Assembly: GCA_017852795.1 (NCBI GenBank)
Contig: JAFMKU010000008.1
Span: 1 to 55,200 of the forward strand
From: Candidatus Neomicrothrix sp.
Lineage (GTDB): Bacteria; Actinomycetota; Acidimicrobiia; Acidimicrobiales; Aldehydirespiratoraceae
Length of the DNA: 55,200 nt
Direction of reading: 5' to 3'
This document shows, in pieces, positions 2,919-49,725 of this stretch. The notes under the pieces are model-generated. The model did not search any database. It was not told the origin of the DNA and worked only from the letters and a program-made list of their open reading frames with translations. The first letter of the stretch is position 1, and every line of letters begins with the position of its first letter. Both the position numbers and the translations under genes were made by a program.

Positions 2919-4004
2919 CTAGTCTGACCGAGCGCAAGGATTCCTTACCGTTCCGGCCACCGCAGGCAACACATCGAGCGGATGCACGACCCCAGCGGCG
3001 GCGTCACACACCGACGGAATGGCGTTGACAATCCGGTTGGCCGCGGTGGCGTTCCCTCCGCCAGCCGCACCCGGTTCGCCCAGTTCGGTGCCGTGCACCT
3101 CAACGGTCAAATTGGGGCGGCCGGTGATCGTGACTGCGTGGAGTCCTTGCCCGGTGTGAGGAAGCGGCCACTCGGGGGCACAGTCATCGTCGATCCGGGT
3201 GATGTGCTCCATGACAATCAACGGTTCCCCGGCAACGATTCCCTGGACTTCGAAACGAAACGCCCCCAGCGTGCCCTGCTCAAAGTCACCCATCCCAGCA
3301 ACCGTCACCGTCCGGTCCAGCGGGCGTTTCTCGACCACGGTCCGGAGTTCGTCCACCGTCACACCGAGACCGTCAGCCACCACCCTCACCACCGGACCCC
3401 ACACCATTTCCAGCGCGAAGTCGTACAGCATCGGTGGGGTGGCTTCCATTGGGCCGCCAAACCCGATCAGGTTCCGGACCGCGTCGGGCTGGTCATAGAG
3501 CGCATAGTTGAAGATCTCACGGCTTCGGATCTCGGTGATGTCGGCACTAACTCCGGCCAAAAACAGCGGGAGGATGTCGCAGATCCACCCTGGGTCAATC
3601 CCCGACGCGAACAGTGAAGTACCACCCTCACGACAGGCTTGGGTAAGCGGGTCCATCAGGTTCGATGGCGCCGACGGTGGGTGGTAAAGCGGGTAGAACG
3701 ACGGCGTGACCACGTTGGTTCCCGACCGCAGGATGTGTTCGACCTCGGCCTGCGATTCGACCGGCCGAAAGTCAGAATTGACGCTGTACACCACGGCGTC
3801 AACGTCGGCACTTTCCGCGAGCGCCACATCGTCGCTGGCGGCCACGCCAACCGGATCGATGCCAGCCAGCAACCCTGCGTCCACCCCGACCTTGTCCGGG
3901 TTAGCAACGATCACGCCAACCAACTCCAGATCCTGATGGGCGGCGACCGCCCGGATCGCTGGCCGGCCCACGTTGCCTGTTCCCCACACCACTACTCGTC
4001 GCAT
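2919..4004 (-). CDS. NAD(P)-dependent amine dehydrogenase / dihydrodipicolinate-reductase-like protein
   Basis: WGTGNVG Rossmann motif and SGIDPGW. Start placed at ATG 4004, which overlaps the upstream stop (TGATG). Confidence 0.8.
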   Translation of the reverse strand: MRRVVVWGTGNVGRPAIRAVAAHQDLELVGVIVANPDKVGVDAGLLAGIDPVGVAASDDVALAESADVDAVVYSVNSDFRPVESQAEVEHILRSGTNVVTPSFYPLYHPPSAPSNLMDPLTQACREGGTSLFASGIDPGWICDILPLFLAGVSADITEIRSREIFNYALYDQPDAVRNLIGFGGPMEATPPMLYDFALEMVWGPVVRVVADGLGVTVDELRTVVEKRPLDRTVTVAGMGDFEQGTLGAFRFEVQGIVAGEPLIVMEHITRIDDDCAPEWPLPHTGQGLHAVTITGRPNLTVEVHGTELGEPGAAGGGNATAANRIVNAIPSVCDAAAGVVHPLDVLPAVAGTVRNPCARSD

Positions 4005-6766
4005 CACGTCTCCCATCGTCGAGTTATTGTCGCCCAGAACCTCGCCCCCCACCAGAGAAACGCCATCATCAGCAGCGATCCACCCGCGAGCACCAGACCC
4101 GTTCTGAGGTGCCGAGGGTGAAACGTCAACTCCACCGTGTGGTCACCGGCCGGGATCTCAACCCCCATGAACGCGGCGTCGCTGCGCACGATCTCCGCTG
4201 GAACCCCGTCGACGGTGGCCTGCCACCCGGGATACTCCACCACCGAAAACACGACCAACGCGGGCACGGTTGACGACACCGAAGCCGACACCTGATCACC
4301 GGCAAACGACGAAGCGTTCACCACAAACTCGGCGTCGGCTACCGGTTGGGTCGGCAAGTCAGTTGCGGTCTGGGTCACCGCAACCGGCCCAGTGCGTTCC
4401 ATCACCCAAGCCGCAGCCTGATCAGCGTCGGGTTCTACCGTCGCCGCGGTAAACACACGAACCGGAGTAGCCGAGGTGCGCTCGGTCAAGATCACGTCAC
4501 CGGTTCGAAGCAGCCGCAGATCATCACCGCCAGTGACAAACCCAACGTTGAGCGAATCGTCAGCACCCCGGGCAACCAGCATGGCGCCAGGGGTCTCGGC
4601 CACCACGCTGACTGTCACTTCGGACCCGACCGGCCACTGCTCGCCCATCACCGCGACCGGCATCTCAAAAGGTCCGAGCCGGGTCCGGGTCCGCTTATCG
4701 GTCACCGTTTCACCATCAACCCGCACCTCGACCAACACCGCGGTCGGCGCCCGGAAATCAACATCGAACAGCACCGCTCTCACTCCGCCGGCGGGCACCA
4801 CCGTGGTGAACTGCTGCGGGTCAGCCGCATCAACGAACAACTGCGGATCTCCCGGGTCGATGCGCTCCCCGGGCGGCGTGCTGATCGGATACTGCGCCCA
4901 GATCCCCACCCCCATCGCATCCCAGATCGGAAGCTCGGCTGGTGTGTTGATCGGGATCGCCGGATAGGTCGGTGTGCCGCCACCACGAGGGTCAAGTACA
5001 TAGTCACCGGCTTGGCGCAGCAGCGCCTGATACCCGTCGGATTTCAGCATCTGACCACGAATGTCATCGATACCGAAACTCGCGGTGGTGTTCGGGAAGA
5101 ACACATACCCTTCGCCACCGAGCCGCAACCCATCGGGCAGCTCGGCGACAACGACCTCATGGGCGGGAGTGGCTCGCAGCCGTTCGTCCGGGTCGACCGT
5201 GGTCGGAACCGCCATCAACAACACCAGCAGTTCAGCCGCAATCACCGAAACCAGCACCAGCCCCGCTCCCATCGGAGACAACCATCGGCGCAACCGGGCC
5301 ACCACCACCGCCAGCACCACCCCCGCGGCCACCGCTGGCACCAGCAACGCTTGCCCGCTTTCTGCCAGCAAACCGCGAGCCGACGCTTCGTGATACCAGT
5401 GCCGAAGCGAAGGAAGCAGCGCCAGCACCGACACCACCGCGATCGTGGCCGCGACCCGCACCGGCCGTCGCAGCGAACCGCTGCGGGTCAGGCTGTCGCC
5501 GGTGTCGCGGTCTTGGCCGGTGAGCTGATCAACCCCGAACCCGGCCAGCAACGCCACCGCCAACGAAATCAGCACCTTGGAACGAGTCATAAGCCCGGCG
5601 GCACCCGGCAGCAGCGATCCCAACGCCACGCCGACCGGGCCACCGATGTAGGCCACCAGCAAACCGAAGCCAAGGAACGCCGCGACCCCTCGGACCGCGG
5701 CTCGAACCCGTCGGTCATCGCTCGACCATCCAGCCGCCATCCCCAACAGCGCCAACAGCAGCGCGGCGGCACCGGTAACGATGTTGAATTCGCTCCAGTT
5801 TCCCGCGCCGAACCAGGCCGGGGCGTTCCCGTCGGATCCCCAAAATCCGGAACCAAACGCGGTCAACAGGTACTCGGGACCGGCCGACGAATCCGGCGAC
5901 CAGGTCCGCTGACTGGTATCGGCCCAGGAGTAGTACTCGCCAAACCCGATCAGGTGCGGGGCTGCCAACCCAAACCCCAGCGCACCCGCGGCAATACCAA
6001 CTCCACCCAACCGGAACAGTGAGCGCTTCGATTCGGGTTCGACCCGGTCGCTTGCCGGAACTGTCCGGAACTGCCAGTCGTGACGCTCGCTGCCCAGCCG
6101 CACCAGCACATACATCAGTGCCCCAATCACGAGGTAGGCCGTGACCTGCGGGAAGTTTGACCAGATCATCAACGCCACCACACCGGCGATCGGAACACTG
6201 CGGCGCCAGCGTGGGTCGCGGATCGCCAACTCAACCGCCCACAGCAACCCGGGGGCCAGCGCCGCCACCGTCGAATGCGGCCAGTTCAACCAGCCCACCA
6301 TGAACCCTGAGAAGGCATACGCCGACCCGGCCGCTACCGCTCCCCAACGGTTGCGGTTCCACGACCGCAGCAAGCCAACCGTCAACAAGAACGCGATCAG
6401 AGCGCGAACCGCCGCCACCAGACCGGGGGCATACCAGGCGGGCACGAGCAGGTAGAGCACGTTGACGAACGGCACCCCACCTTTTAGGAACGGTTGTCCG
6501 CCGGCCAACGTCTCGTTCCACCAAGAAAATTCGCCGTTCACCAAACGGTCCCGCAGCAGCGACCAGTGAGCATGAATGTTGATCGGGTCACCGGGGCCGT
6601 TTTCTGGATCAAAACCCGGCAAAACGTGAGCGTCGAAGGGGGCGTGGGAGGCCACCAGATCGTGGCTGACCAGACTCCCACCACCGATCAGCGCGGGGCC
6701 GAACGCCACCAGGATCAACACGACCCCGAAGAGCCCGACGAGGAGTCGCCTGCTTCGCTCGGTCAT
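4004..6766 (-). CDS. YfhO-family polytopic membrane protein (GT-C-like glycosyltransferase)
   Basis: About 12-14 TM segments, WWNETLAGGQPF, AYAFSGF, and a C-terminal YPGWQATVDG...GVEIPAGDHTVELTF YfhO motif. Start ATG 6766 follows a TAGGGT hexamer. Confidence 0.8.
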   Translation of the reverse strand: MTERSRRLLVGLFGVVLILVAFGPALIGGGSLVSHDLVASHAPFDAHVLPGFDPENGPGDPINIHAHWSLLRDRLVNGEFSWWNETLAGGQPFLKGGVPFVNVLYLLVPAWYAPGLVAAVRALIAFLLTVGLLRSWNRNRWGAVAAGSAYAFSGFMVGWLNWPHSTVAALAPGLLWAVELAIRDPRWRRSVPIAGVVALMIWSNFPQVTAYLVIGALMYVLVRLGSERHDWQFRTVPASDRVEPESKRSLFRLGGVGIAAGALGFGLAAPHLIGFGEYYSWADTSQRTWSPDSSAGPEYLLTAFGSGFWGSDGNAPAWFGAGNWSEFNIVTGAAALLLALLGMAAGWSSDDRRVRAAVRGVAAFLGFGLLVAYIGGPVGVALGSLLPGAAGLMTRSKVLISLAVALLAGFGVDQLTGQDRDTGDSLTRSGSLRRPVRVAATIAVVSVLALLPSLRHWYHEASARGLLAESGQALLVPAVAAGVVLAVVVARLRRWLSPMGAGLVLVSVIAAELLVLLMAVPTTVDPDERLRATPAHEVVVAELPDGLRLGGEGYVFFPNTTASFGIDDIRGQMLKSDGYQALLRQAGDYVLDPRGGGTPTYPAIPINTPAELPIWDAMGVGIWAQYPISTPPGERIDPGDPQLFVDAADPQQFTTVVPAGGVRAVLFDVDFRAPTAVLVEVRVDGETVTDKRTRTRLGPFEMPVAVMGEQWPVGSEVTVSVVAETPGAMLVARGADDSLNVGFVTGGDDLRLLRTGDVILTERTSATPVRVFTAATVEPDADQAAAWVMERTGPVAVTQTATDLPTQPVADAEFVVNASSFAGDQVSASVSSTVPALVVFSVVEYPGWQATVDGVPAEIVRSDAAFMGVEIPAGDHTVELTFHPRHLRTGLVLAGGSLLMMAFLWWGARFWATITRRWET

Positions 6767-6837
6767 AGCCCGAAACCCTAGCCGCTGGGCCGTAGCGACA
6801 ACTTCCACAACCCTGGCGTCCTGACACAAACTCGGCC

Positions 6838-6866
6838 TTGACATTCCATTCGTATGAATGCAATCT
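6838..6866 (+). promoter_or_regulatory. Putative sigma-70 promoter with an operator palindrome for the MarR/kynurenine operon
   Basis: TTGACA (6838-6843), 17 bp spacer, CAATCT (6861-6866). Palindrome CATTC-gtat-GAATG (6847-6860) lies in the spacer. Confidence 0.5.
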
Positions 6867-7331
6867 GGTGCGGTGACCGCCGCGGATCAACCCTTTCTCA
6901 GCACCTACCTTCCCTACCTTCTGCGCCGGGCCGATCAGTCCATCTCGGCCTCGTTCTACGACGTGCTCACCCACCACGGCATCGCCCGATCCGAATGGCG
7001 CGTGCTGGCCGTACTCCACGAATTCGGTCCCCTCCCGGTGCTCGAAGTAGCCGACGCGGCCCTCAGTCCCCAACCCACCGTCACGCACGCGCTGCGACGC
7101 CTCGAACAACGAGGATTGGTTACTCGCACCGACAGCGAAACCGACCGGCGGCAACGCATCGTCACCATTACCGAACAAGGCTTCCAGATCACCCAAACCC
7201 TCATCGACGAAGCACGCGACCTTGCCCATCGGGTGCTGGCCGATATCCCGGGTCTCGATGACCTAGCCGCCCAACTGCGGACCCTGACCGACACGGTCAA
7301 GCACCGCGCCGAACTTCAGACGAGGAACTGA
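6858..7331 (+). CDS. MarR-family transcriptional regulator (true start may be GTG 6873)
   Basis: YLPYLL...EWRVLAVL...QPTVTHALRRLEQRGLVTR...DRRQRIVTITEQG winged-helix motifs. The stop overlaps the next start. Confidence 0.92.
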   Translation: MQSGAVTAADQPFLSTYLPYLLRRADQSISASFYDVLTHHGIARSEWRVLAVLHEFGPLPVLEVADAALSPQPTVTHALRRLEQRGLVTRTDSETDRRQRIVTITEQGFQITQTLIDEARDLAHRVLADIPGLDDLAAQLRTLTDTVKHRAELQTRN

Positions 7332-7888
7332 TGCCCGAGTACGACCCGAGCAGCCCCCACGACCGCCGACCGTTCGACCTTCACGGCTGGATCGACGCAC
7401 ACCGAGACGAACTGACCCCTCCGGTGTCCAACAAGCAGGTGTGGCGACAGGCCGACATGATCGTGATGATTGTCGGTGGCGGCAACCAGCGAAACGATTT
7501 CCACATCGACCCTCGAGAAGAATTCTTCTATCAGCTCCGAGGAGACATGGACCTGTGGATCTGGCCCGAACACGGCACCGCCCCCTACAAGATGCCGATC
7601 CGGGAAGGCGAGGTGTATCTGCTGCCCCCCAACCTCCGCCATTCTCCCCAACGGCCCGACCCGGACTCGGTTGGTTTGGTCGTTGAGTATCAGCGAAACC
7701 AAGGAGAGCTCGACGCGTTCGAATGGGCCTGCCCCGAATGTGCTGGCCTCGTGCATCGGGTCGAAGTTCAGGTGCAGGCCATCGACCAAGACCTCCCACC
7801 GTTGTTCGCCGCGTTTCACGCCGACACCGCGGCTCGCACCTGTCCGAACTGCGACACCCTCCATCCGGGACGGGAGGGCCGGCTGTGA
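7331..7888 (+). CDS. nbaC: 3-hydroxyanthranilate 3,4-dioxygenase
   Basis: PPVSNK, VGGGNQRNDFH, EEFFYQ, HSPQR and the rubredoxin-like CPEC/CPNC site. Confidence 0.95.
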   Translation: MPEYDPSSPHDRRPFDLHGWIDAHRDELTPPVSNKQVWRQADMIVMIVGGGNQRNDFHIDPREEFFYQLRGDMDLWIWPEHGTAPYKMPIREGEVYLLPPNLRHSPQRPDPDSVGLVVEYQRNQGELDAFEWACPECAGLVHRVEVQVQAIDQDLPPLFAAFHADTAARTCPNCDTLHPGREGRL

Positions 7889-9126
7889 CCGTGCTGCGCG
7901 CCGACCAACTCGACGCCGACGACCCGCTTGCCGGTTTCCGGCAAGAATTTGAGCTGCCCACCGGCATCTATCTGGTCGGCAATTCGTTAGGGGCGTTGCC
8001 ACGAACCGCTCGCAGCTACCTCAACACCGAGCTCGACCGTTGGTCCACGCTCGGTGCTGAAGGCCACTTCACCGGAAACTTGGCGTGGCGCGACTACCAC
8101 GAACTGCTCACCGACCAGTTGGCGACGCTGGTCGGGGCCCGGCCGGTTGAGGTCGTGGCCATGAACGCCTTGACCGTCAACCTTCACCTGCTCATGGTCA
8201 GCTTCTACCAACCCCGCGCTGACCGTCACAAGATCCTGATCGAAGACCACGCCTTCCCTTCGGACCATTTCGCAGTCGAGTCACAAATCCGCCAGCGCGG
8301 TTACGACCCTGCCCAATCGCTCATCACCATCGGCCCTCGGCCCGGTGAGGAAACTCTCCGAGAAGAAGACATTCTGGCCGCCATCGCCGAACACGGCGAC
8401 TCGCTGGCAATGGTGCTCCTGCCCGGCGTCCAGTACTTCACCGGGCAGGTCCTACCGATGCGGGCCATCACCGACGCCGGACACGCTGTGGGGGCGGTTG
8501 TCGGTTTCGATCTCGCTCACGCGGTCGGCAACATCCCGCTGGAACTCCACGAATGGGGAGTCGACTTCGCGGCCTGGTGCACCTACAAGTACCTCAACAG
8601 CGGCCCCGGATCGGTCGGTGCGGCCTACGTGCACGAACGCCACGTCGCCGACCCAGACCTTCCCCGGTTCTTGGGATGGTGGGGCACCGCCACCGCGACC
8701 CGCTTCAAGATGGACACCACCTTCGAACCCATCCCCACCGTCGAAGCCTGGCAGGTGTCCAACGCCCCGGTGCTGCCCATGGCGGTGCTGCGGGCCTCGC
8801 TGGACTTGTTCGAAGCCGCCGGCGGCATGGTCCCCCTCCGAGCCAAATCCGAAAAACAGATCGCTTTCCTTGACCACCTTCTGGCGCAACGGTTGGGGTC
8901 GCGGATCACCAGCATCACCCCAACCGCGGCGGCCGATCGCGGCTGCCAAGTGGCGCTGCGAGTCACCGCCGGCGACGGGCGGCGGGTATTTCGCGAACTT
9001 CAGAACGCCAACGTGCACTGCGACTGGCGCGAACCCGATGTCATCCGGGCCGCCCCCGTTCCTCTCTACAACACGTTCGCCGACATCGAACAGTTCATCG
9101 ACATCCTCGACGAGGTCACCCAATGA
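7885..9126 (+). CDS. kynU: Kynureninase
   Basis: YLVGNSLG, LTVNLHL, AFPSD, DLAHAVGN, WCTYKYLNSGPG (PLP Lys), DWREPDVIR. GTG start overlaps the nbaC stop. Confidence 0.96.
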   Translation: MTVLRADQLDADDPLAGFRQEFELPTGIYLVGNSLGALPRTARSYLNTELDRWSTLGAEGHFTGNLAWRDYHELLTDQLATLVGARPVEVVAMNALTVNLHLLMVSFYQPRADRHKILIEDHAFPSDHFAVESQIRQRGYDPAQSLITIGPRPGEETLREEDILAAIAEHGDSLAMVLLPGVQYFTGQVLPMRAITDAGHAVGAVVGFDLAHAVGNIPLELHEWGVDFAAWCTYKYLNSGPGSVGAAYVHERHVADPDLPRFLGWWGTATATRFKMDTTFEPIPTVEAWQVSNAPVLPMAVLRASLDLFEAAGGMVPLRAKSEKQIAFLDHLLAQRLGSRITSITPTAAADRGCQVALRVTAGDGRRVFRELQNANVHCDWREPDVIRAAPVPLYNTFADIEQFIDILDEVTQ

Positions 9127-10466
9127 GCCGAGCCGTCATCATCGGAGCCGGTCCAGCCGGCGCTTTACTTTCGATCTACCTAGCCCGTCAGGGCTACGAG
9201 ACCGTCGTCTACGAACGACGAGCCGACCTTCGACAATCCCGCGTTGAGGGGGGTCGATCCATCAACTTGGCACTCGCGACCCGAGGGATCGTCCCGTTGA
9301 TCGACGTCGGCGCGCTCGAACAGGTCGATGCCATCACCATCCCGATGCGGGGCCGCATGATCCACTCGCCCGACGAATCCGAGCCAGTCATGCAGCCCTA
9401 CGGAAACCACGTTCACGAAGTCATTCACTCCGTTTCACGCAGCGAACTCAACGCCATCCTGCTCGACCTGGCCGAGCAGACCGACGGAGTGCAACTCGAG
9501 TTCAACCGACAACTCGCCGACGTGGACCTCGACGGGCGCCGTATCCATTTCGCCGACGGCGGCACCAGCGACTTTGATCTGTTGGTCGGCGCCGACGGGG
9601 CCGGTTCTGTGGTGCGCACCGCGCTGGCCGAGGCTGGTTCGTGTCGCCATCGAACCGAATGGCTCGACCACGACTACAAAGAACTCACCCTGCCGTCCCG
9701 GCCCGATGGGAGCCACCAACTCGACCCCCACGCCTTGCACATCTGGCCCCGGGGCGACCTGATGGTGATCGCCTTGGCCAACCCGGCGGGTGACTTCACC
9801 GTCACCTTGTTTGCCCCTCGCACCACCTTCGCCGAACTCACCCCCGACACGGTCAGCGACTACTTCAGCGATCACTTCCCCGACCTGGCCAGGCTGATCC
9901 CCGACCTCGGTCAGCAGTTCGCCGACAACCCCACCGGTGCGCTCGGCACGCTGTGGGCCGACGGGTGGAGTCACAAGGACCGCGCCGTGCTCGTCGGCGA
10001 CGCCGCGCACGCCATCGTTCCGTTCCACGGGCAAGGAATGAACGCCGCTATGGAGTCGGTACGGGCGTTGGATCGGCAGCTTCGAGCCCATCCCGGCGAT
10101 GTCGAAACGGCGCTGCACCAATTCGAGGCAGAACGGAAACCCAACACCGACGCCATTGCACAAATGGCGCTCGACAACTACCTCGAAATGCGTTCTGGGG
10201 TGGTCGATCCGAACTATCTGGCCAAACGAAACCTGGCCCTCGAACTCGAACAACGACACCCTGAGCGAATCAGGCCCCGGTACAACATGGTGATGTTCTC
10301 AACGATGCCGTACGCCGAAGCCCAAGCACGGGCCGCCCAACTCAACGAGTTGCTCGACACCGCCCTCAACAATCCCGATGCCGACCTCGACATGCTCGTG
10401 GAGGCCATCGCTGCCCTCCCACCGGAAGATCCGTTGATGGACCCGAACGCCCTCTCCCTGGCATGA
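9123..10466 (+). CDS. kmo: Kynurenine 3-monooxygenase
   Basis: GAGPAG, GRSINLALA, PMRGRMIH, YKEL, LHIWPR, GDAAHAIVPFHGQGMN. Confidence 0.94.
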   Translation: MSRAVIIGAGPAGALLSIYLARQGYETVVYERRADLRQSRVEGGRSINLALATRGIVPLIDVGALEQVDAITIPMRGRMIHSPDESEPVMQPYGNHVHEVIHSVSRSELNAILLDLAEQTDGVQLEFNRQLADVDLDGRRIHFADGGTSDFDLLVGADGAGSVVRTALAEAGSCRHRTEWLDHDYKELTLPSRPDGSHQLDPHALHIWPRGDLMVIALANPAGDFTVTLFAPRTTFAELTPDTVSDYFSDHFPDLARLIPDLGQQFADNPTGALGTLWADGWSHKDRAVLVGDAAHAIVPFHGQGMNAAMESVRALDRQLRAHPGDVETALHQFEAERKPNTDAIAQMALDNYLEMRSGVVDPNYLAKRNLALELEQRHPERIRPRYNMVMFSTMPYAEAQARAAQLNELLDTALNNPDADLDMLVEAIAALPPEDPLMDPNALSLA

Positions 10467-10493
10467 CACCCCCTCACATGGAACACACCTGAC

Positions 10494-11291
10494 ATGAACT
10501 CCGAACCACTGACCTACAGCAACTATCTGAAGATCAACGAGCTGCTGGATCTCCAACAGTGCCGCTCGATCGACCCCGATAGTGGCCAACCCGAACACGA
10601 TGAGACGCTGTTCATCATCGTCCATCAGGTGTACGAGCTCTGGTTCAAACAGCTCCTCCACGAACTCGACTACATCGTCACGCTGCTTGACCGTGACGAG
10701 ATCAATGGCGGCCGCCACCACCTCAAACGGGTACTCAAGATTCTCAAGACGCTGGTCGGCCAGATCGACATTCTTGAAACGATGACGCCAGCCGAGTTCG
10801 CCGGGTTTCGGTCGTTTCTGCAAAGCGCCAGCGGGTTTCAATCCGTGCAGTTCCGCGAGTTGGAGTTTGTGCTTGGGGTCAAGGATCGGGTGCAGGTGGA
10901 TTGGTTTGGTGGCGATGCCTCGATCCGGCTGCAAACCCGACTGGAAGCGCCGACCCTGTGGGATGCGTTCGTTGGGGTGCTGGCCCGAGCCGGCTACCCG
11001 GTGCCTGACGACGCCCTCACCCGTGACGTGACGACACCGATCCGCGAACACGAAGGGCTTCAGCAGGCCATCATTGCCTGCTACGCCGACGAAGGTTTCG
11101 CTGATCTTTGCGAGACACTCACCGACCTTGACGAAGGAGTCCAAGAGTGGCGGTACCGCCACGTGATGATGGTCCGGCGAACCATCGGCACCAAACCTGG
11201 AACCGGCGGATCCGACGGTGCCTCCTACCTCGCCACCACCCTGTTCACCCCGAGTTTCCCCGACCTGTGGGCAATCCGAACCGCCTTCTAG
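10494..11291 (+). CDS. kynA: Tryptophan 2,3-dioxygenase
   Basis: YSNYL, HDETLFIIVHQVYELWFK, ASGFQSVQFRELE, WRYRH, GTGGS. Confidence 0.96.
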   Translation: MNSEPLTYSNYLKINELLDLQQCRSIDPDSGQPEHDETLFIIVHQVYELWFKQLLHELDYIVTLLDRDEINGGRHHLKRVLKILKTLVGQIDILETMTPAEFAGFRSFLQSASGFQSVQFRELEFVLGVKDRVQVDWFGGDASIRLQTRLEAPTLWDAFVGVLARAGYPVPDDALTRDVTTPIREHEGLQQAIIACYADEGFADLCETLTDLDEGVQEWRYRHVMMVRRTIGTKPGTGGSDGASYLATTLFTPSFPDLWAIRTAF

Positions 11292-11299
11292 GAGCATTC

Positions 11300-12736
11300 A
11301 TGCACCCCTATCCCGAACTGCGACTCTTTATCGGTGGTCAATGGTCAACGACCGACACCACCCGGCCGGTCATCAACCCGGCCACCGAAGCAGAGATCGG
11401 ACGTTTGCCGGTAGCTGGAGCGGCAGAACTCGATGCCGCGCTCGAAGCAGCCCAGAAGGGGTTTGCGGTCTGGCGTCGCACCGCGCCTCGAGATCGGGCA
11501 GATCTCATTCGGGCCGCGGCCGGGGTGCTTCGGTCTCGTCAGGACGAGATCGCCGATGCCATCACCGCCGAACAGGGCAAACCGCTTCACGAAGCGAAAC
11601 TCGAAGTGATCCGGGGCGCCGAATTCTTCGAATGGGACGCGGGGGAAGCGGTACGAACCTACGGTCGGGTCATCCCCAGCGCGCCCGGGGTTCGCTACAT
11701 CGTGCACCACGAACCCATCGGTCCGGTCGCCGCGTTTTCTCCGTGGAACTTCCCGCTGAGCCAACCAGCCCGCAAAGTAGCGGGGGCATTGGCCGCCGGA
11801 TGTTCGATCATTCTCAAAGCCGCGGAAGAAACCCCGGCCGGTGCGATCCATCTGGCTCGAGCCTTCGAAGAAGTCGGTCTTCCCGCCGGTGTGCTCAATC
11901 TGGTGTTTGGCGTTCCTGATGAGATCTCTTCGCATCTGATCCCCAGCCCCACGACCCGCCTGGTGGCCTTCACCGGTTCGACCTGGGTGGGGCGGCATCT
12001 GACCACGATGGCATCCGAACACATGACACCGGTGTTGATGGAACTCGGCGGGCATGCGCCGGTGATCGTGAGCAACCACACCGACGTGGCCGCCGCTGCG
12101 GTGGTTTCTGCTCGCCGCAAAACCCGCAACGCGGGGCAGGTCTGCACCTCACCGACCCGGTTCTTCGTTCACCGCCAGGTGTACGACGAGTTCCTCGAAA
12201 CGTTTGCGGCAGAAATTGGCCGGACCGTGGTGGGTGACGGCACTGACCCGACCAGCAACATGGGTCCGTTGGCTAACGAACGCCGGGTCCCGACCCTGCA
12301 CCGACTCGTGACCAACGCCATCGATGCCGGAGCCGATCTGATCACCGGCGGCGAACCTCTGGACCGCCCCGGCTATTTCTTTGCTCCGACCGTTTTGGCC
12401 AACGTGCCCGCCGAAGCCCAAGTCATGCAGGAAGAACCATTCGGTCCCTTGGCCATTGTTAACCCGGTTGACGACATCGCCGAAGCGATCGCGGCCGCTA
12501 ACGCCGTGCCGTTCGGGCTGGCCGCCTACGGGTTCTCGGACCGGGCCGACGAAATCGATCAGATGGTGGACGGTGTGGAAGCCGGGAACCTTTCCATCAA
12601 CACGCTCGAAGCGTCGCTGCCGGAGACGCCGTTCGGCGGGGTGAAATCCAGCGGGTACGGACGTGAAGGCGGATCCGAAGGTCTCCACCACTACATGACG
12701 GTCAAAAACGTTTCCCATTCGATCGCCATCAACTAG
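11300..12736 (+). CDS. NAD(P)-dependent aldehyde dehydrogenase (SSADH / alpha-ketoglutarate-semialdehyde dehydrogenase type)
   Basis: PWNFP, FTGS, MELGGHAP, GQVC, EEPFGP, PFGGVKSSG. ATG 11300 follows GGAG. Confidence 0.9.
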   Translation: MHPYPELRLFIGGQWSTTDTTRPVINPATEAEIGRLPVAGAAELDAALEAAQKGFAVWRRTAPRDRADLIRAAAGVLRSRQDEIADAITAEQGKPLHEAKLEVIRGAEFFEWDAGEAVRTYGRVIPSAPGVRYIVHHEPIGPVAAFSPWNFPLSQPARKVAGALAAGCSIILKAAEETPAGAIHLARAFEEVGLPAGVLNLVFGVPDEISSHLIPSPTTRLVAFTGSTWVGRHLTTMASEHMTPVLMELGGHAPVIVSNHTDVAAAAVVSARRKTRNAGQVCTSPTRFFVHRQVYDEFLETFAAEIGRTVVGDGTDPTSNMGPLANERRVPTLHRLVTNAIDAGADLITGGEPLDRPGYFFAPTVLANVPAEAQVMQEEPFGPLAIVNPVDDIAEAIAAANAVPFGLAAYGFSDRADEIDQMVDGVEAGNLSINTLEASLPETPFGGVKSSGYGREGGSEGLHHYMTVKNVSHSIAIN

Positions 12737-12752
12737 CCCCAAGGACACTGTC

Positions 12753-13706
12753 ATGGACTACACCCGCAGCGACGCCAAAGCCCACGCCCGAGCCCACATG
12801 ACCGGGATTTGGGCCGCGGCGCTCACCCCGTTCGACGACCAGCTCCGCATCGACGAAGACGGCTTCCGGCACAACATCAACCATTGGGTCGACGATCTGG
12901 CAATCCGCGGGTTGTTTATCGCCGGCAAACAAGGCGAGGCGTTTTCGATGTCGGTCGCGGAACGAAAACGGACGTTCGAACTCGCGGTCGAAGCCACCGC
13001 GGGACGGGCGCAGACCATCATGAGCTGTTCGGATCCGAACCTTGACGTGGTGCTTGATCTGGCCCGGCACGCGCAGACGGTTGGCGCCGACTGGATCGTG
13101 GTCCACGCGCCACAACTGCCGTTCTTCAAAGCGCAGGACGAAACGCTGCTCGGCTACTACCGGACCATCGCCGAGTCGGTTGATATTGGCATCGCCCTGT
13201 GGAGCCATCCCGACAGCGGCTATTTGATGTCACCGCAGCTCTGCAACCGTCTGGCTGATCTCGAAACGGTGGTGGCCATCAAATACAGCGTGCCCCGACC
13301 GGCCTACCGGGAACTGACCGAACTGGCCAGCGACCGGCTGCTGGTTAGCACCGCGTCCGAAGAGGAATGGCTCGACAACATCATCGAGTTGGACTGGCGT
13401 CTTTACCTTTGCTCGTCGCCGCCGTTCCTGCTGCAAAGCGCCAAAGACCGCCGGATGCTCGATTACACCCAGGCTGCTTTCGAGGGCCGAATCGACGACG
13501 CTCGACGGATCAGCGCCAGCCTCGAACCGGTACGCGCGGCGCTGCGCGACACCCGTCCCGCCGAAAAGCCTCACGCTCAACAGAAGTACTGGCAGGAACT
13601 GCTCGGTCAGGTAGGTGGACGAGTGCGGGCACCGCTGTTGGAACTCACCGACGACGAACGCGCCACGATCCGCGACGCATTCGAGCAAAGCGGTCTGCAA
13701 CGGTGA
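12753..13706 (+). CDS. DapA/NAL-family Schiff-base lyase, not a canonical DHDPS
   Basis: LTPF, GKQGE in place of GTTGE, LWSHP in place of LYNVP, catalytic Lys in AIKYS, and RAPL. Confidence 0.85.
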   Translation: MDYTRSDAKAHARAHMTGIWAAALTPFDDQLRIDEDGFRHNINHWVDDLAIRGLFIAGKQGEAFSMSVAERKRTFELAVEATAGRAQTIMSCSDPNLDVVLDLARHAQTVGADWIVVHAPQLPFFKAQDETLLGYYRTIAESVDIGIALWSHPDSGYLMSPQLCNRLADLETVVAIKYSVPRPAYRELTELASDRLLVSTASEEEWLDNIIELDWRLYLCSSPPFLLQSAKDRRMLDYTQAAFEGRIDDARRISASLEPVRAALRDTRPAEKPHAQQKYWQELLGQVGGRVRAPLLELTDDERATIRDAFEQSGLQR

Positions 13707-14485
13707 GAGTGGCTTTCGTCGGATGGGGGGCGATCAGCCGCGCTGCTGCCGAACTGCTCCACGACGACATCAAGGTGGTGGCCGTCGCCACCCGCCGTCC
13801 ACGGTCCGCTGCGGAACTACCGGCCGGCGCTCAATGGCTTTCGTCGGTGGACGAACTGGCTGGCACGGCACCCGCTTTGGTGGTTGAGGCCGCGGGGCGA
13901 GACGCAGTTGTTCCCTGGGGGTTAGCGGCGCTAGCCGCGGGTGCTGACGTTGCGGTGTCTTCGGTTTCGGCGTTCGCCGATCCCGAACAGCTCACGGTTC
14001 TGCGCCAGGCCGCGATCAACGCCGGGTTGCGGGTGCATGTGCATCCTGGGGCGTTGGCCGGGGTCGAGGCGCTGGCTGCGGCCCGACTGTTAGGGCTCGA
14101 CGAGGTGAACCATCGGATCGTCAAACCCCCCGCAGCGTGGCAGGGAACGCCAGCGGTGGACCTCTGCAATCTCAACGAGATCACCGAAGCCACCGAGTTC
14201 TTCAGCGGTTCGGCCGCCGACACCGCTCGACTCTTTCCGCAGAACGCCAACGTCGCCATGACCACTGCCCTGGCCGGAGTCGGCCCGGATCGCACCCAGA
14301 TTCGACTCGTCGCCGACCCGGCGTCAACCAGAAACCGGCACGAACTGTCGGCTCGGGGGGCGTTCGGGGTGTTGGACGTGACAGTCGCCAACCATCCTCT
14401 GCCGGAGAACCCAAAGACCTCGGCGCTTGCCGCACTGTCACTGGCCCGGCTGATCAACGGACAGGTAGCCGGGCTTTCGATCTGA
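13703..14485 (+). CDS. nadX: L-aspartate dehydrogenase-like protein
   Basis: GWGAIS, VEAAG, GALAG, FPQNANVA, NRHE, NPKTSALAALS. GTG 13703 overlaps the upstream TGA. Confidence 0.88.
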   Translation: MRVAFVGWGAISRAAAELLHDDIKVVAVATRRPRSAAELPAGAQWLSSVDELAGTAPALVVEAAGRDAVVPWGLAALAAGADVAVSSVSAFADPEQLTVLRQAAINAGLRVHVHPGALAGVEALAAARLLGLDEVNHRIVKPPAAWQGTPAVDLCNLNEITEATEFFSGSAADTARLFPQNANVAMTTALAGVGPDRTQIRLVADPASTRNRHELSARGAFGVLDVTVANHPLPENPKTSALAALSLARLINGQVAGLSI

Positions 14486-14505
14486 ACGGCCGTTGGTTGT
14501 CATCA

Positions 14506-14545
14506 CCGGTGGCAGGACGCAAAGCCGGTGGCAGGACGCAAAGCC
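14506..14545. repeat. 19-bp perfect tandem duplication CCGGTGGCAGGACGCAAAG x2
   Basis: Copies at 14506-14524 and 14525-14543, followed by CC. Confidence 0.9.
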
Positions 14546-14589
14546 CGCCACAACGGCTAACCTCAGCCTCCGTACCCCCACGGGTACAC

Positions 14590-14681
14590 GGAGACGTGGC
14601 CGAGCCAGGTTGAAGGCGCTTCCCTGCTAAGGAAGTAACGTCGCAAGGCGTTCGAGGGTTCGAATCCCTCCGTCTCCGCCA
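14590..14681 (+). tRNA. tRNA-Ser(GCT)
   Basis: GGAGACG/CGTCTCC acceptor stem, anticodon arm CTTCC-CTGCTAA-GGAAG, long variable arm, TTCGAAT, encoded CCA. Confidence 0.96.
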
Positions 14682-14692
14682 AGTCAAAGGTT

Positions 14693-16468
14693 TCAAGAGC
14701 TTTCGGGCGTGATGACCGGACAGTCGGCGCCGACGACATAGACCCGGATTCCTGCGAGTTCTGGTTGGTTGTTGAGCCATGTCTCGGCGTCCGCGCAGGT
14801 CATCAACGCACCAGGGTCGTACGGAAGCCAACCCGAGTAGCCGTTCACGGTCGGGACTTCGGTCTGGTAGGCCGCGAGCATGGCTTCGGTGTCGGTCGCG
14901 AACCACGGCACACCATCGACGTCCAGCAACAAAAACGCGTCCGCCTCCAACTCGTCGACGGCTACTCGAAGTTCCGCCTCGTACGCTCCGGCGTCGGTCA
15001 CAAACCCGGCTGACCGTGACGACGGAAGCTGCTGACTTCCGAGCTCAAGAAACAACACGGCCAACGCCAACAACCAGGTCCACGCTGGGAAACGGATGTG
15101 TATCCGCCGCAACCCGGTCCCGCAGGCGATCGCTACCGGGAAGGCCAGCACCAAAGCGATCCGACCCGGGGTCCGAACCGAATCCAGCCCGGGCAGGACT
15201 TTGGCCATCAGCACAAAAATCGACCAGCGGCCCACCTTCACCACGAGCAGCACACCCGCTACTGCCACCACCGCGTGGAGGTGCGCCAGCCGTCCGCGGA
15301 ACCCACTGCTGGGAAGCGCCCAGAGCGCCAGGAACGACACCACCACGCCGAACAGCAGCGCGTGTTCATGCACGTTGATCTGAGCGAGATCGTCACCCAT
15401 CCACTGCCACCAGTCCGAAACTGGGGCGGTAACCAACGATTTGGGGGTCGGTGAATAGTTGAGCGCGTCGGCCGACGTGCGTGACAAGCCAAGACGTGAC
15501 GCGTGGGACTGGTAGGCCAACGCGACCCAACCCGCGACACCCACCACACCTAACCAGCTCGCCCAACCAGAAACCCGAGCCCAACCACTCCACCCGGTCC
15601 AGGCCAACGAGCCCTTCCAAGCACACCCTGGTCGACCCTTGGCCTGCCACCGGTCCCAGAGCCGTCTGGTCCCTATCGCCCGCGGGTCACGACCCGACAA
15701 GAACTCGGCGGTGTGGGCCCGGTCGTTGTCGAGCCAAAGCAACCCCACCGTTGCCGCTACCGTGGCCAACACCAACAAACCGGTCAGCAACGCCACCCCA
15801 GGCGAACAGAGAAGCCCCACCGCCAGCCAACCGCTGACGGCGCGTCCCCGACGCAACACCAACGACCGGTCGGTGAGCAACGCCACACCAAGCCGGGTGG
15901 CTTCGAAAAGCGCCCACGGGATGTACCAGCGATGCACCAACTGGGCATGGTTGGCCTGCATCGTCACCGGAAACGCCAGCAGGAACACCCCTGCGATGAC
16001 CACCGACGTGGCCGGCGTGAACCACCAGCGGCGGGCAACGGCGTAGGCCGCGAGGCCCGACAGCAGAACCCCGGCGAAATACCAGACCGCGAAACTGTTC
16101 GAAATCCCTACCCCCATCCAGCGAGGCAACAGGTACGCCCACCCCGACCCGAGATGGTTGTCGCTGTAGAGGATCACGTCGTCAAGCGGCCAGAAAAACA
16201 GGCCGTCAAAGAGACCGACCCGGCCCCGAGACCAGAGATGAAGATGCTCAAGCACCGCCATGTTGAATCGAGTATCGCCAACATCGCCCGGTACCCGATC
16301 CGCCCACGGTCCGATTCGGCCCCACGTGGCAAAAACCGCTGAAGCGACCACCAGCAAGGCCACAACCAGCGACTGGCGTCGTTCGTCGAGCTCCTGACCG
16401 GCCAGACCGGTGCTCACCGGAGGGGTGACAACCGGTTCCTCAGCAGAATCGCTCCGTTGACTCACCAC
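14693..16468 (-). CDS. Polytopic membrane protein, GT-C/YfhO-like putative glycosyltransferase
   Basis: PGDVGDTRFN acidic loop after TM1, YSDNHLG, VRTPGR, PTVNGYSG and many TM helices. Confidence 0.7.
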   Translation of the reverse strand: MVSQRSDSAEEPVVTPPVSTGLAGQELDERRQSLVVALLVVASAVFATWGRIGPWADRVPGDVGDTRFNMAVLEHLHLWSRGRVGLFDGLFFWPLDDVILYSDNHLGSGWAYLLPRWMGVGISNSFAVWYFAGVLLSGLAAYAVARRWWFTPATSVVIAGVFLLAFPVTMQANHAQLVHRWYIPWALFEATRLGVALLTDRSLVLRRGRAVSGWLAVGLLCSPGVALLTGLLVLATVAATVGLLWLDNDRAHTAEFLSGRDPRAIGTRRLWDRWQAKGRPGCAWKGSLAWTGWSGWARVSGWASWLGVVGVAGWVALAYQSHASRLGLSRTSADALNYSPTPKSLVTAPVSDWWQWMGDDLAQINVHEHALLFGVVVSFLALWALPSSGFRGRLAHLHAVVAVAGVLLVVKVGRWSIFVLMAKVLPGLDSVRTPGRIALVLAFPVAIACGTGLRRIHIRFPAWTWLLALAVLFLELGSQQLPSSRSAGFVTDAGAYEAELRVAVDELEADAFLLLDVDGVPWFATDTEAMLAAYQTEVPTVNGYSGWLPYDPGALMTCADAETWLNNQPELAGIRVYVVGADCPVITPESS

Positions 16469-27788: not shown

Positions 27789-29078
27789 CTAGGACGGCCA
27801 GGGGACGCCGTAGTCGTCGAACCACCAGCGAGCTTCGCGGATGGCGTTGGGATCGGTCCGACGGTCGAGGTCTTGGTGAAGGTCGGTCGGTCGGGGGCCA
27901 ATCTCGGCCGCAATCTCGTTGAGTGCGCCTTCATCGAGCCCGTAGCAACGCACCGCGTTGAGACCAAGCAGCAGACGGGTTTCTTCGACCGGGATCTCGG
28001 TGAAGTCGGTTTCGAGCCGCGTCCGGGTGTGGGGCCACGACCCTTCCGGATGGGGATAGTCGGTGCCCCACATGAGGGCGTCGACTCCGTTGACGTAGCG
28101 ACGACGAAGTTCCACTTTGGCCATGGTGGAGGCGCCGATGAACACGTTGGTTCCGACGTACTCCGACGGGAGTCGCTCAATGAGTCCCTTGGTGCGGGAA
28201 CTCATCTTCTTGACCTTCCAGTTCGTGCCACCAAACATGACGTCGGTCTTCCAGAGAAGATCGCCGAGCCACCAAGATCCGCATTCCACCGGTGCGTATT
28301 TGAAGTTCGGGAACTTGTCGAATTTGCCCGACAACAGGAACTGCCAGAGCGGCCGGTGGGTCCAGAACGCCACTTCGAGCATGTACTGGGCCATGTTCTC
28401 GTTGTAGGCCTCGGTGTCGGCCTCACCCGAATGGGTGTGCACGACCAGCCCCGTTTCGTGACATGCCTGCCAGATCGGGTCGTACATTTCGTGGCCGTAC
28501 GAAGGGGCACCGTGCCACATGGTGGGGATCATGATCCCGCGGATACCAGGCTTGTCCGCTAGCGCATACACCTCTTTGACCGACTCCTCGACCCCGTGGG
28601 TTACCGGCACCAGCGCCACACCGGCGCGACGAGGCGGATTGGATGCACAGAACTCTTCGAGCCAACGGTTATGCGCTCGGGCCCCGGCCCAGGCCAGCTT
28701 CGGATCGGTGATCACGCCAGCTTGAAGACCCGCACCAAACGGCGGAGCTTCCATACCGGTAACCGCATCACCATCGGCGAAGATCACCTCGCCAGCAATA
28801 CCGTCCGCGTCGAGGGCCTTGTCGCGAATGTCGGGGTCGTAGGCACCTTTGAGGCCCCATTCGTTCTCGGTTTCCCACTGTTCGACATAGTCGCCGTTGA
28901 GTTCCTCAACCATGGCCCGATGCTCATGACGAGTCTTGAGCCATTCATCGAACTGATCGTGAACCGAGCTTTCGAGGTACTCCCGATAGTCCTCAACGTA
29001 GAGCCCGGCATGGGTGTCTGAGCTGACAATGACATACGGATCGTTCGAGGTATTGATGCCTTCAAGTGGGTTGGCCAT
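27789..29078 (-). CDS. Amidohydrolase_2-family metal-dependent hydrolase
   Basis: SSDTHA, HNRWL, YDPIW, HTHSG, WGTDYPHPEGSWP. Confidence 0.88.
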   Translation of the reverse strand: MANPLEGINTSNDPYVIVSSDTHAGLYVEDYREYLESSVHDQFDEWLKTRHEHRAMVEELNGDYVEQWETENEWGLKGAYDPDIRDKALDADGIAGEVIFADGDAVTGMEAPPFGAGLQAGVITDPKLAWAGARAHNRWLEEFCASNPPRRAGVALVPVTHGVEESVKEVYALADKPGIRGIMIPTMWHGAPSYGHEMYDPIWQACHETGLVVHTHSGEADTEAYNENMAQYMLEVAFWTHRPLWQFLLSGKFDKFPNFKYAPVECGSWWLGDLLWKTDVMFGGTNWKVKKMSSRTKGLIERLPSEYVGTNVFIGASTMAKVELRRRYVNGVDALMWGTDYPHPEGSWPHTRTRLETDFTEIPVEETRLLLGLNAVRCYGLDEGALNEIAAEIGPRPTDLHQDLDRRTDPNAIREARWWFDDYGVPWPS

Positions 29079-29168
29079 AGCCCTAGCGTCACAGACCTGT
29101 TCCGGGGGTGCAAAATCGTTCGCGTTCTGATTTTCGTGCTTTCGGGTCCCGCGTGCGAACATCTGACC

Positions 29169-46079: not shown

Positions 46080-46092
46080 CGTTCATCCCCTC

Positions 46093-48105: not shown

Positions 48106-48298
48106 TTCTCAAGGACGGGAAGACCTGACCGTTCAGTGCTTCCATGGAGTTTCGAGATGTACCGAGGCTCACCGTCAAAAGACGGACATTTTCCCAAAAA
48201 ATCAGGGGTTTTTCAGACCAGAAACGTGTCATTGCACGCAGTTGAAAGAAGCCATTCACGGTGCAATCACACTAGCAGTTTGGTGTGACTCAGGCGTG

Positions 48299-48613
48299 TC
48301 AGACGACCCGTATTCGAAGCCGCTGAATCCGATCCGATCCCGTCACCTGAGCGAGCCGTTCAATCAGCTCTTTTTCTAGCCAACGAAACTCGGTAGCCCA
48401 GGCTGGATCGGTAACTGAAATGGTCAACTCATCACCATCAACCGACCCTGGCGATGACCGTTCGGCGAGGTCTGGACCGACGATGGTTTCCCATTCACCA
48501 AACACGCTCGACAACATGTCAACGGTTGGCGCGTTTAAGCCGCCGAGCAACCGTTCGAGACTGTTGGCGATCGACTGAGGGTCGGTTTGTTCTGGCTTTC
48601 GACGATCAACCAT
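48299..48613 (-). CDS. dciA: DciA/DUF721 helicase-loading protein
   Basis: WETIVG...P...L.I......WATE pattern; lies between recF and gyrB. Confidence 0.85.
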   Translation of the reverse strand: MVDRRKPEQTDPQSIANSLERLLGGLNAPTVDMLSSVFGEWETIVGPDLAERSSPGSVDGDELTISVTDPAWATEFRWLEKELIERLAQVTGSDRIQRLRIRVV

Positions 48614-49718: not shown

Positions 49719-49725
49719 CGTAGAG

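Follow-up and report, generated by a model that had tools for sequence, protein, structure and literature searches.

The window analysed here, a stretch of 55,200 nucleotides of high-G+C DNA (0.56-0.65) from Candidatus Neomicrothrix sp. (Acidimicrobiia; contig JAFMKU010000008.1 of assembly GCA_017852795.1), holds at 6858-14485 a block of eight genes coding for a MarR-family regulator, the ring-opening dioxygenase HAO, kynureninase (KynU), kynurenine 3-monooxygenase (KMO), tryptophan 2,3-dioxygenase (TDO), an aldehyde dehydrogenase (ALDH), a DapA-like protein and an aspartate dehydrogenase (AspDH) homologue (Table 1). Listing of the open reading frames (ORFs), together with refinement of their starts, confirmed the eight co-oriented genes marR-nbaC-kynU-kmo-kynA-aldh-dapA-like-nadX described in an original prediction for this DNA, and the measured junctions (-1, -4, -4, +27, +8, +16 and -4 nt) agree with the overlaps or gaps of less than 30 bp that it had given. 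The block is best explained as a single operon, presumably controlled by its MarR protein. Scans with Pfam and NCBIfam across 6858-14485 also bore out the claim that the cluster contains no decarboxylase for 2-amino-3-carboxymuconate semialdehyde (ACMS), no deaminase, and no nadA or nadC gene. ACMS, the product of HAO, is the branch point between NAD synthesis and the full oxidation of tryptophan, and its textbook fates are spontaneous cyclisation and decarboxylation by ACMS decarboxylase (ACMSD). We report that the last three genes of the block (the trio of ALDH, DapA-like protein and AspDH) are conserved partners of HAO, and we consider how they might dispose of ACMS by another route.

Table 1. 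Genes and other features of the tryptophan-related block and its borders (positions in the window)
Feature	Position	Strand	Evidence
Candidate promoter/operator: TTGACA (6838-6843) and palindrome CATTC-N4-GAATG (6847-6860)	6838-6860	+	Read from sequence
MarR-family regulator, 157 aa, start codon uncertain	6858-7331	+	Pfam MarR_2 5.7e-14, MarR 2.1e-13
HAO/NbaC, 3-hydroxyanthranilate 3,4-dioxygenase	7331-7888	+	Pfam 3-HAO 2.8e-43; NCBIfam equivalogs
Kynureninase KynU, GTG start inferred	7885-9126	+	TIGR01814; KYNU_C 8.2e-23
KMO, kynurenine 3-monooxygenase	9123-10466	+	FAD_binding_3 2.4e-23; PDB matches
TDO/KynA, tryptophan 2,3-dioxygenase	10494-11291	+	Pfam Trp_dioxygenase 2.2e-63
ALDH, NAD(P)-dependent, of the succinate-semialdehyde (SSADH) / alpha-ketoglutaric semialdehyde dehydrogenase clade	11300-12736	+	Aldedh PF00171 2.4e-150
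DapA-like protein, divergent Schiff-base enzyme of the DHDPS/NAL family	12753-13706	+	PF00701 2e-30
AspDH (NadX) homologue, GTG start inferred	13703-14485	+	Asp_DH_C 1.7e-31; NAD_binding_3 6.7e-12
tRNA-Ser, closing the block 3' of AspDH	14590-14681		

Proteins were assigned to families by Pfam, by the curated cut-offs of NCBIfam and by sequence searches of the PDB. Of the enzymes that lead from tryptophan to 3-hydroxyanthranilate, TDO, KMO and KynU were found in the window. HAO exceeds the cut-offs of two equivalog models (NF009763, 235.9 bits against a cut-off of 220; TIGR03037, 214.3 against 145.95), and KynU, whose GTG start was picked so that the protein aligns to the model from position 2, exceeds that of TIGR01814 (424.6 against 246.4 bits). 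All ten PDB matches of KMO at E<=1e-20 are kynurenine 3-monooxygenases, the best being 5y66 (2.3e-92). TDO scores 215 bits against Pfam PF03301, yet stays under the cut-off of its NCBIfam equivalog TIGR03036 (260.3 against 390.7). A candidate for kynurenine formamidase, such as related loci have, was not found in the window. As a possible hidden ACMSD we considered the only Amidohydro_2 protein of the window (457 aa; 27789-29162, minus strand) and rejected it: it lies 13 kb from the cluster, its 12 PDB matches, led by DitZ and PtmU3, include no ACMSD, and no NCBIfam model matches it. This protein overlaps head to head with a protein of the acetoacetate decarboxylase family (27789-29942 for the pair).

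The original prediction had named as a test whether the trio normally sits with unrelated catabolic genes and is a neighbour of HAO here by chance. Scanning one genome per species yielded 80 loci that encode close relatives of the DapA-like protein (63-79% identity); judged by their titles, 19 are from Actinomycetota (mostly Acidimicrobiia, one from Gaiellales), 59 from Alphaproteobacteria, one from Povalibacter and one from a Chthoniobacterales metagenome-assembled genome (MAG) contig. Clustering of ORFs took the longest non-overlapping ones, so that antisense ORFs are mis-picked in high-G+C DNA and small genes or single-locus neighbours may be missed; for this reason the counts of presence and absence rest on tblastn, the queries being the eight proteins of the window and members chosen to represent the recurrent neighbour families. 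HAO at 40% identity or more was present in 64 of the 80 loci, with a further copy at about 40% in locus L037, and in 56 of the 80 its gene starts less than 300 bp 3' of the DapA-like gene. ALDH orthologues (58-75% identity) were found in 52 loci and AspDH orthologues in 47, so the test came out in the trio's favour. In the linked copies of both the window and L062, HAO clears the curated equivalog cut-offs.

The association also held in the 52 loci with at least 8 kb of sequence on each side. Here HAO was present in 46, ALDH in 38, a molybdenum (Mo) enzyme described below in 9, one or the other of these two in 47, and AspDH in 39; 34 of the 52 contained HAO, ALDH or the Mo enzyme, and AspDH together. 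KynU, KMO and TDO were confined, among the 80 loci, to those of Actinobacteria (6, 10 and 11 of 19, respectively). Some loci without HAO carry other tryptophan genes, with IDO directly 5' of the DapA-like gene in L074 and kynureninase ahead of ALDH, DapA-like and AspDH in L032. ORF clustering gave 86 families of neighbouring genes that are shared by two or more loci; 80 of these were scanned with Pfam through a representative, and none belonged to Amidohydro_2/ACMSD, RidA/YjgF, NadA or NadC. Since the association persists across at least two phyla and across several gene orders and regulators, the trio is a conserved partner of HAO and not a chance neighbour, and we regard a functional link between the two as highly probable.

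Gene order differs between groups. The window and five other Acidimicrobiia loci share the order MarR-HAO-KynU-KMO-TDO-ALDH-DapAL-AspDH (DapAL being the DapA-like gene), and L014, L022 and L047 have ALDH-DapAL-HAO-AspDH, with an alpha/beta hydrolase gene on one side and LysR on the other. In most Alphaproteobacteria a LysR gene on the minus strand is followed by ALDH or the Mo enzyme, DapAL and HAO, and then by the five genes of a Liv-type ABC transporter, AspDH and a hydrolase of the HSL type, with ALDH sometimes last. Among 72,556 annotated plasmid records, 47 match the DapA-like protein at E<=1e-60, and tblastn with a more distant relative (P0141) also returned 47 records from the same genera. 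On a Sinorhizobium plasmid the order is LysR, then DapAL-HAO-AspDH-ALDH-ABC, and on a Paroceanicella plasmid LysR, then Mo enzyme-DapAL-HAO-ABC-AspDH; plasmids of Phaeobacter inhibens carry a split form, with HAO-ALDH, kynU, two transporters, AspDH and DapAL in divergent units. In four loci (L034, L035, L041 and L060) a flavin monooxygenase of the salicylate/3-hydroxybenzoate hydroxylase type, accompanied by a LysR regulator and a binding protein of its own, adjoins the module; this enzyme may hydroxylate anthranilate or a related compound and so supply 3-hydroxyanthranilate.

A FastTree phylogeny of the DapA-like proteins (all 80 loci and the window with every row kept, rooted on four distant relatives, support values unexamined) places the actinobacterial clade within the alphaproteobacterial diversity. 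The HAO proteins of those Acidimicrobiia loci that have the ALDH-DapAL-HAO-AspDH order are 53-56% identical to the HAO of the window, as are the alphaproteobacterial copies. Taken from the sequences, this pattern suggests joint transfer of DapAL and HAO between phyla.

The DapA-like protein belongs to the DHDPS/NAL superfamily (106 bits against PF00701, residues 16-312). Its predicted structure (pLDDT 95.4, pTM 0.92) has the (beta/alpha)8 fold of this superfamily and resembles DHDPS/NAL enzymes in Foldseek with TM scores of 0.80-0.84 at no more than 24% identity, and no closer specialised relative is among the Foldseek matches listed. It is not a true DapA: its score is far below the cut-off of the dapA equivalog TIGR00674 (84.5 against 206.15 bits), no NCBIfam model reaches its cut-off, and the protein lacks the DHDPS relay (Thr44/Tyr107/Tyr133 in E. 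coli numbering). In the alignments, Lys177 (in AIKYS) falls on the strand-6 lysine that forms the Schiff base, which lies in VKEA in 2yxg and in VKFT in 4woq; it is invariant in 81 of 81 sequences, as are the motifs GKQGE, HAP, WSH and KYS. Across these 81 sequences 92 of the 317 positions are invariant, among them several Lys and Arg that are potential ligands of a polycarboxylate. The protein is thus probably a Schiff-base enzyme with a rebuilt pocket under strong constraint, in which many of the conserved residues are Lys, Arg or His.

The clade of the DapA-like protein is narrow, with 85 of 1.84 billion 50%-identity representatives matching at E<=1e-30, many of them fragments; the closest relatives are proteins of Acidimicrobiia/Acidimicrobiales MAGs, and the ESM Atlas returned only clusters named 'dihydrodipicolinate synthase family protein', without structure. 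Three long proteins contain the domain, the third being probably an artefact. In P0271, a metagenomic protein of 611 aa, a DapA-like domain (58% identity to the window protein) is fused to a two-module VOC/extradiol-dioxygenase-like domain, which scores 83 bits against the HpaD model and 58 bits against the catechol 2,3-dioxygenase model. This fusion fits a clade that acts directly on a ring-fission product. P0272 joins a DapA-like domain to part of the Mo subunit.

The ALDH (501.6 bits against PF00171) has as its best PDB matches 9zh8 (6.2e-140), for which a literature search found no published description, the alpha-ketoglutaric semialdehyde dehydrogenase 5x5t (5.9e-139) and the SSADH 5vbf (1.6e-133); no muconate-semialdehyde dehydrogenase occurs among its best 60 PDB matches. 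In NCBIfam it scores 284.5 bits against TIGR03216, compared with 432.6 against the SSADH model TIGR01780, and it is therefore not nearest to the 2-hydroxy- or 2-aminomuconate-semialdehyde dehydrogenases; the latter score is itself under the SSADH cut-off of 646.35 bits.

In 13 of the 80 loci (L026, L029, L036, L038, L039, L046, L048, L052, L057, L064, L070, L073 and L077) the slot of the ALDH gene, directly 5' of the DapA-like gene, is taken by a gene for a molybdopterin-binding subunit of 740-760 aa. Its best NCBIfam match is the alpha subunit of glyceraldehyde dehydrogenase (517.9 bits, under the cut-off). In the Paroceanicella plasmid locus L083 the Mo gene (6725-9004) overlaps the DapA-like gene by 4 nt, and no gene for an Fe-S or FAD subunit lies beside it in this annotated plasmid. 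ALDH alone was found in 52 loci, the Mo enzyme alone in 13, neither in 15 and both in none. From its sequence and position, the Mo subunit looks like a non-orthologous replacement for the aldehyde-oxidising step, and the mutual exclusion of the two enzymes points to aldehyde oxidation being required.

The AspDH homologue belongs to the aspartate dehydrogenase family, exceeding the cut-off of subfamily model NF009828 (232.9 against 177 bits), and falls under that of the NadX equivalog TIGR03855 (155.1 against 206.55), the model for NadX of NAD biosynthesis. It matches PDB entry 2dc1 at 4.2e-30, and in the alignment the His of its RNRHEL motif coincides with that of ENIHEI (2dc1) and HNIHIV (1j5p). 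This catalytic residue, H213, is invariant in 32 of 32 AspDH sequences of the module, and its canonical prokaryotic position fits chemistry at C2/C3 of an iminoaspartate-like substrate. We also considered whether the protein is a 2-aminomuconate reductase (AMR) of the metazoan type and rejected this, since the position two residues upstream is occupied by Asn and the His is canonical, the residue distinction being that described in a preprint and not taken from an aligned metazoan sequence (10.64898/2026.06.05.730449). A complex prediction for the DapA-like protein and AspDH, made with the hand-over of a labile imine in mind, gave a score of 0.00 and a mark of 0.32 and says nothing either way.

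Combining these results, we propose that HAO, the DapA-like protein, an aldehyde oxidiser and usually AspDH form a conserved, horizontally mobile module that disposes of ACMS without ACMSD, a reading to which we give a little less than an even chance. Formally, ACMS is iminoaspartate with a 3-oxopropenyl group on C3. TDO, KMO and KynU would take tryptophan to 3-hydroxyanthranilate, and HAO would open its ring to ACMS. The DapA-like gene is tightly tied to that of HAO, and we therefore take its product as the enzyme that receives ACMS or its oxidised acid: transimination on Lys177 and addition of water at C4 would be followed by a retro-aldol break of the C3-C4 bond. The C1-C3 part, with the 3-carboxyl, would leave as iminoaspartate or oxaloacetate, and C4-C6 as a C3 aldehyde, either malondialdehyde or, if oxidation precedes cleavage, malonate semialdehyde. 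ALDH (or the Mo enzyme) would oxidise the aldehyde function before or after cleavage. AspDH, using NAD(P)H, would convert the C4 imine, or oxaloacetate and ammonia, to L-aspartate; this step would retain the nitrogen and balance the NAD(P)H formed by ALDH.

The canonical route from ACMS takes about seven enzymes. An operon that leads from tryptophan to ACMS and has only three further genes implies that the route must be short, and the C3-C4 split would be the shortest way to central metabolism. We hold this particular chemistry (C3-C4 split, oxidation and aspartate formation), whose substrates, step order and products we infer, more tentatively, at somewhat below to well below even odds. The ACMSD-independent branch of the original prediction has therefore gained the conservation of the trio with HAO; its hydratase-aldolase, oxidation and reduction steps fit the enzyme families and stay conditional.

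Several observations weigh against this proposal. The DapA-like protein is without the Thr/Tyr/Tyr relay of DHDPS/NAL enzymes, having GKQGE in place of GTTGE, no PYY, and Trp150 in place of the tyrosine of YNVP, and no specific likeness to NahE-type enzymes was seen in NCBIfam, in the best 60 PDB matches of each list or in the Foldseek matches shown; given both, the hydratase-aldolase chemistry is an analogy. The nearest solved relatives of the ALDH use saturated C4/C5 semialdehydes, which leaves undecided whether it would act on ACMS or on a fragment. AspDH is missing from 13 of the 52 loci with full flanks; four of the 13 are the Acidimicrobiia loci L021, L025, L027 and L058, in which the operon stops at the DapA-like gene and unrelated genes come next. 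Iminoaspartate hydrolyses spontaneously, and AspDH may for this reason be a helpful but dispensable last step; its absences indicate that it is not obligatory, and oxaloacetate would need no dedicated enzyme.

Another such observation is a conserved HSL-type alpha/beta hydrolase (Abhydrolase_3/BD-FAE), unexplained by the model, that stands beside AspDH in 31 of the 59 alphaproteobacterial loci (within L003-L071; for example at 17025-17930 in L062). Its best NCBIfam match scores about 130 bits, under the cut-off. An Abhydrolase_3-type hydrolase also flanks the operon in the Acidimicrobiia loci L002 (1745-2770), L040 (2080-3021) and L042, and a single protein, P0274 (519 aa), is a natural fusion of AspDH with the hydrolase that is likewise unexplained. 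The linked hydrolase could be a kynurenine formamidase or a pathway step that has gone unrecognised. Finally, the absence of ACMSD, nadA, nadC and a lower muconate pathway applies to the loci and not to whole genomes, and the counts are not independent events, since many of the loci share a genus or derive from MAGs. Mis-binning is possible in the MAG loci, one example being the 4.9-kb 'Chthoniobacterales' contig, which groups with Acidimicrobiia in the tree.

The alternative that survives best, although we consider it unlikely, is that the DapA-like protein deaminates and beta-decarboxylates ACMS or its acid in the manner of KdgD, feeding a muconate or AMR-like route whose later steps are encoded elsewhere. 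The products would be 2-hydroxymuconate semialdehyde, oxalocrotonate or 2-aminomuconate; ALDH would oxidise the semialdehyde, and AspDH would reduce 2-amino- or 2-iminomuconate. Formation of an iminium between Lys and C2 would ease the loss of the 3-carboxyl, as is established for beta-keto and iminium acids, and KdgD-type NCBIfam models do match the DapA-like protein at 74.2-75.9 bits, under their cut-offs. However, no genes for a 4-oxalocrotonate tautomerase or decarboxylase, a hydratase, an aldolase or glutaryl-CoA metabolism recur in the loci, the ALDH is not close to muconate-semialdehyde dehydrogenases by either its PDB or its NCBIfam matches, and an operon from tryptophan to ACMS with just three more genes argues for a short route. 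An AspDH-family reductase that acts on 2-aminomuconate is described in the metazoan preprint (10.64898/2026.06.05.730449), but the window's AspDH has its His in the canonical place and not two residues upstream as in AMR.

Less probable still, in our judgement an improbable explanation, is that the substrate of the module is not ACMS but a different ring-fission product, or else a modified form of 3-hydroxyanthranilate, such as an acylated or esterified precursor freed by the hydrolase; the roles of the enzymes would then be others than those of the ACMS model. The frequent hydrolase next to AspDH, and its one fusion, would find a place here, as would the fusion of one DapA-like protein to a VOC-type extradiol dioxygenase and not to a cupin HAO, and the loci that hold the trio without HAO (L001, L005, L049 and L056). 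Against this, the dioxygenases linked in the window and in L062 are HAO by their equivalog scores, the Acidimicrobiia operon supplies exactly the enzymes that make 3-hydroxyanthranilate, and the hydrolase could simply be the formamidase.

The original prediction had offered as its own alternative that two routes to quinolinate are co-regulated. In such an operon, serving NAD supply, ACMS would cyclise spontaneously, AspDH would make iminoaspartate for NadA, and ALDH and the DapA-like protein would do unrelated jobs. HAO and AspDH do each belong to an established quinolinate route, and the PGAP annotation gives the Phaeobacter AspDH a GO term for NAD biosynthesis. The evidence disfavours this explanation to the point that we find it very improbable: neither nadA nor nadC lies in the window or among the recurrent neighbours, the alphaproteobacterial versions sit with a LysR gene and uptake ABC transporters and are often plasmid-borne, the DapA-like protein and ALDH are linked to HAO more tightly than AspDH is, and the AspDH of the window falls under the NadX equivalog. 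Chance juxtaposition of a common gene pair of sugar-acid or hydroxyproline metabolism (an alpha-ketoglutaric semialdehyde dehydrogenase and a deaminase that is KdgD-like or acts on pyrroline-hydroxy-carboxylate) can be dismissed as barely credible, since, despite the ALDH's best named PDB match (5x5t) and the known pairing of DapA-family dehydratases with such dehydrogenases, the survey already contradicts it by the linkage of HAO over phyla and gene orders, and no sugar-acid or hydroxyproline genes recur in the loci.

At the 5' border of the block the palindrome CATTC-N4-GAATG, with TTGACA ahead of it, overlaps the annotated MarR start, and similar palindromes lie 5' of MarR in all five MarR-bearing related Acidimicrobiia loci (L002, where it is degenerate, L020, L024, L033 and L040), sometimes in two copies; MarR orthologues of 55-60% identity head the same operon in these five. 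The palindrome is likely the operator of MarR, as predicted from sequence. Given the overlap, either a different true start codon for MarR or a leaderless transcript is possible. A divergent YfhO-like ORF (946 aa, 4004-6844, minus strand) lies just 13 bp from the annotated MarR start. A consensus promoter scan of 6000-15500 returned no promoters, and terminator-like sites there numbered 5 against a shuffle mean of 8.5, fewer than by chance; in an actinobacterium of high G+C content neither result is informative. A perfect tandem duplication of the 19-nt unit CCGGTGGCAGGACGCAAAG (14506-14543) lies between the stop codon of AspDH and the tRNA-Ser gene, and the Rfam scan of the window found three tRNAs and nothing else. 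Farther along, the window contains a replication-origin neighbourhood (43500-54775) with gyrA, gyrB, recF, dnaN and dnaA, followed by rnpA and yidC (dnaA-dnaN-recF-gyrB-gyrA at 43.5-52.5 kb), across which the G+C content drops from about 0.63 to 0.56-0.58.

Should the proposed disposal of ACMS be correct, it would be a third, enzyme-catalysed fate of this compound, by which an aromatic amino acid reaches aspartate in few steps. A tightly conserved DHDPS-family clade that databases name only as 'dihydrodipicolinate synthase family protein' would gain a function, and the presence of 'aspartate dehydrogenase' genes in catabolic clusters of bacteria that have other NAD routes would be explained. 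The use of carbon and nitrogen from tryptophan by marine Acidimicrobiia and roseobacters would be seen in a new light, and the module would be a bacterial counterpart to the 2026 finding on human ASPDH in tryptophan catabolism. More broadly, and with clear doubt, one may imagine that an ACMSD-independent 'aspartate branch', often plasmid-borne, is widespread among marine Acidimicrobiia and many Alphaproteobacteria. In it a new subfamily of DHDPS-fold lyases would split ACMS or its acid at C3-C4, to give L-aspartate by way of AspDH and a C3 acid by way of ALDH or the Mo enzyme, and the route would be redox-neutral and nitrogen-keeping; the tie between AspDH and HAO would then be ancient and bacterial, and the metazoan ASPDH/2-aminomuconate reductase a later variation. 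Full-text literature searches, which covered sources other than subscription journals and supplements, found no description of a bacterial module of HAO, DapA-like protein and AspDH.

The closest known system is ACMSD-dependent catabolism, which in the nba and related clusters of Pseudomonas and Burkholderia proceeds by ACMSD, 2-aminomuconate-semialdehyde dehydrogenase, a RidA-type deaminase and a 4-oxalocrotonate branch. It shares with the block the same start (TDO, KMO, KynU and HAO) and the same need to remove ACMS before it cyclises to quinolinate. In place of these downstream families, none of which occurs in the cluster or recurs in the loci, the block has the DapA-like protein, an SSADH-like ALDH (or the Mo enzyme) and AspDH. 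The five-gene bacterial kynurenine route to quinolinate for NAD has the TDO-KMO-KynU-HAO set in common with the block, but here there is no linked nadC, and there are additional genes of catabolic type, uptake transporters, LysR or MarR regulators and many plasmid copies.

The logic proposed for the DapA-like protein is that of the meta-cleavage lower pathway, in which 2-oxopent-4-enoate hydratase is followed by 4-hydroxy-2-oxovalerate aldolase, and of NahE, a member of the DHDPS/NAL superfamily: a 2-oxo- or imino-enoate would be hydrated and then split between C3 and C4, in the block by way of a lysine Schiff base. NahE shares the fold family; the DapA-like protein differs in having Trp150 for the catalytic tyrosine, and its products would be a C4 compound (oxaloacetate or iminoaspartate) and a C3 compound instead of pyruvate and an aldehyde.

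With the prokaryotic NadX proteins of Thermotoga maritima (1j5p) and Archaeoglobus fulgidus (2dc1), the AspDH homologue shares both Pfam domains, its NF009828 score and the motifs FPxNxNVA, NxH and NPK(T/S)S, and it differs by scoring under the NadX equivalog and by standing in a catabolic context rather than with nadA and nadC. In metazoans, including humans, ASPDH is reported as a 2-aminomuconate reductase of tryptophan catabolism with its His two residues upstream of the prokaryotic site, in a preprint that is silent on bacterial operons, the words 'operon', 'dihydrodipicolinate' and 'Actinobacter' occurring nowhere in it (10.64898/2026.06.05.730449). There too a member of the AspDH family has been drawn into the breakdown of tryptophan after the HAO step, and its gene co-varies with or is linked to that of HAO; this shows that the AspDH scaffold can serve this purpose; the bacterial protein, in contrast, keeps the canonical His, and its loci have no ACMSD to make 2-aminomuconate. 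Set beside these systems, the upstream half of the block is an ordinary kynurenine pathway, whereas no fate described for ACMS corresponds to the downstream half; we therefore see the block as a catabolic cluster for aromatic ring cleavage whose lower branch is undescribed, assembled from known families that include a new and sharply defined subclade of the DHDPS family.

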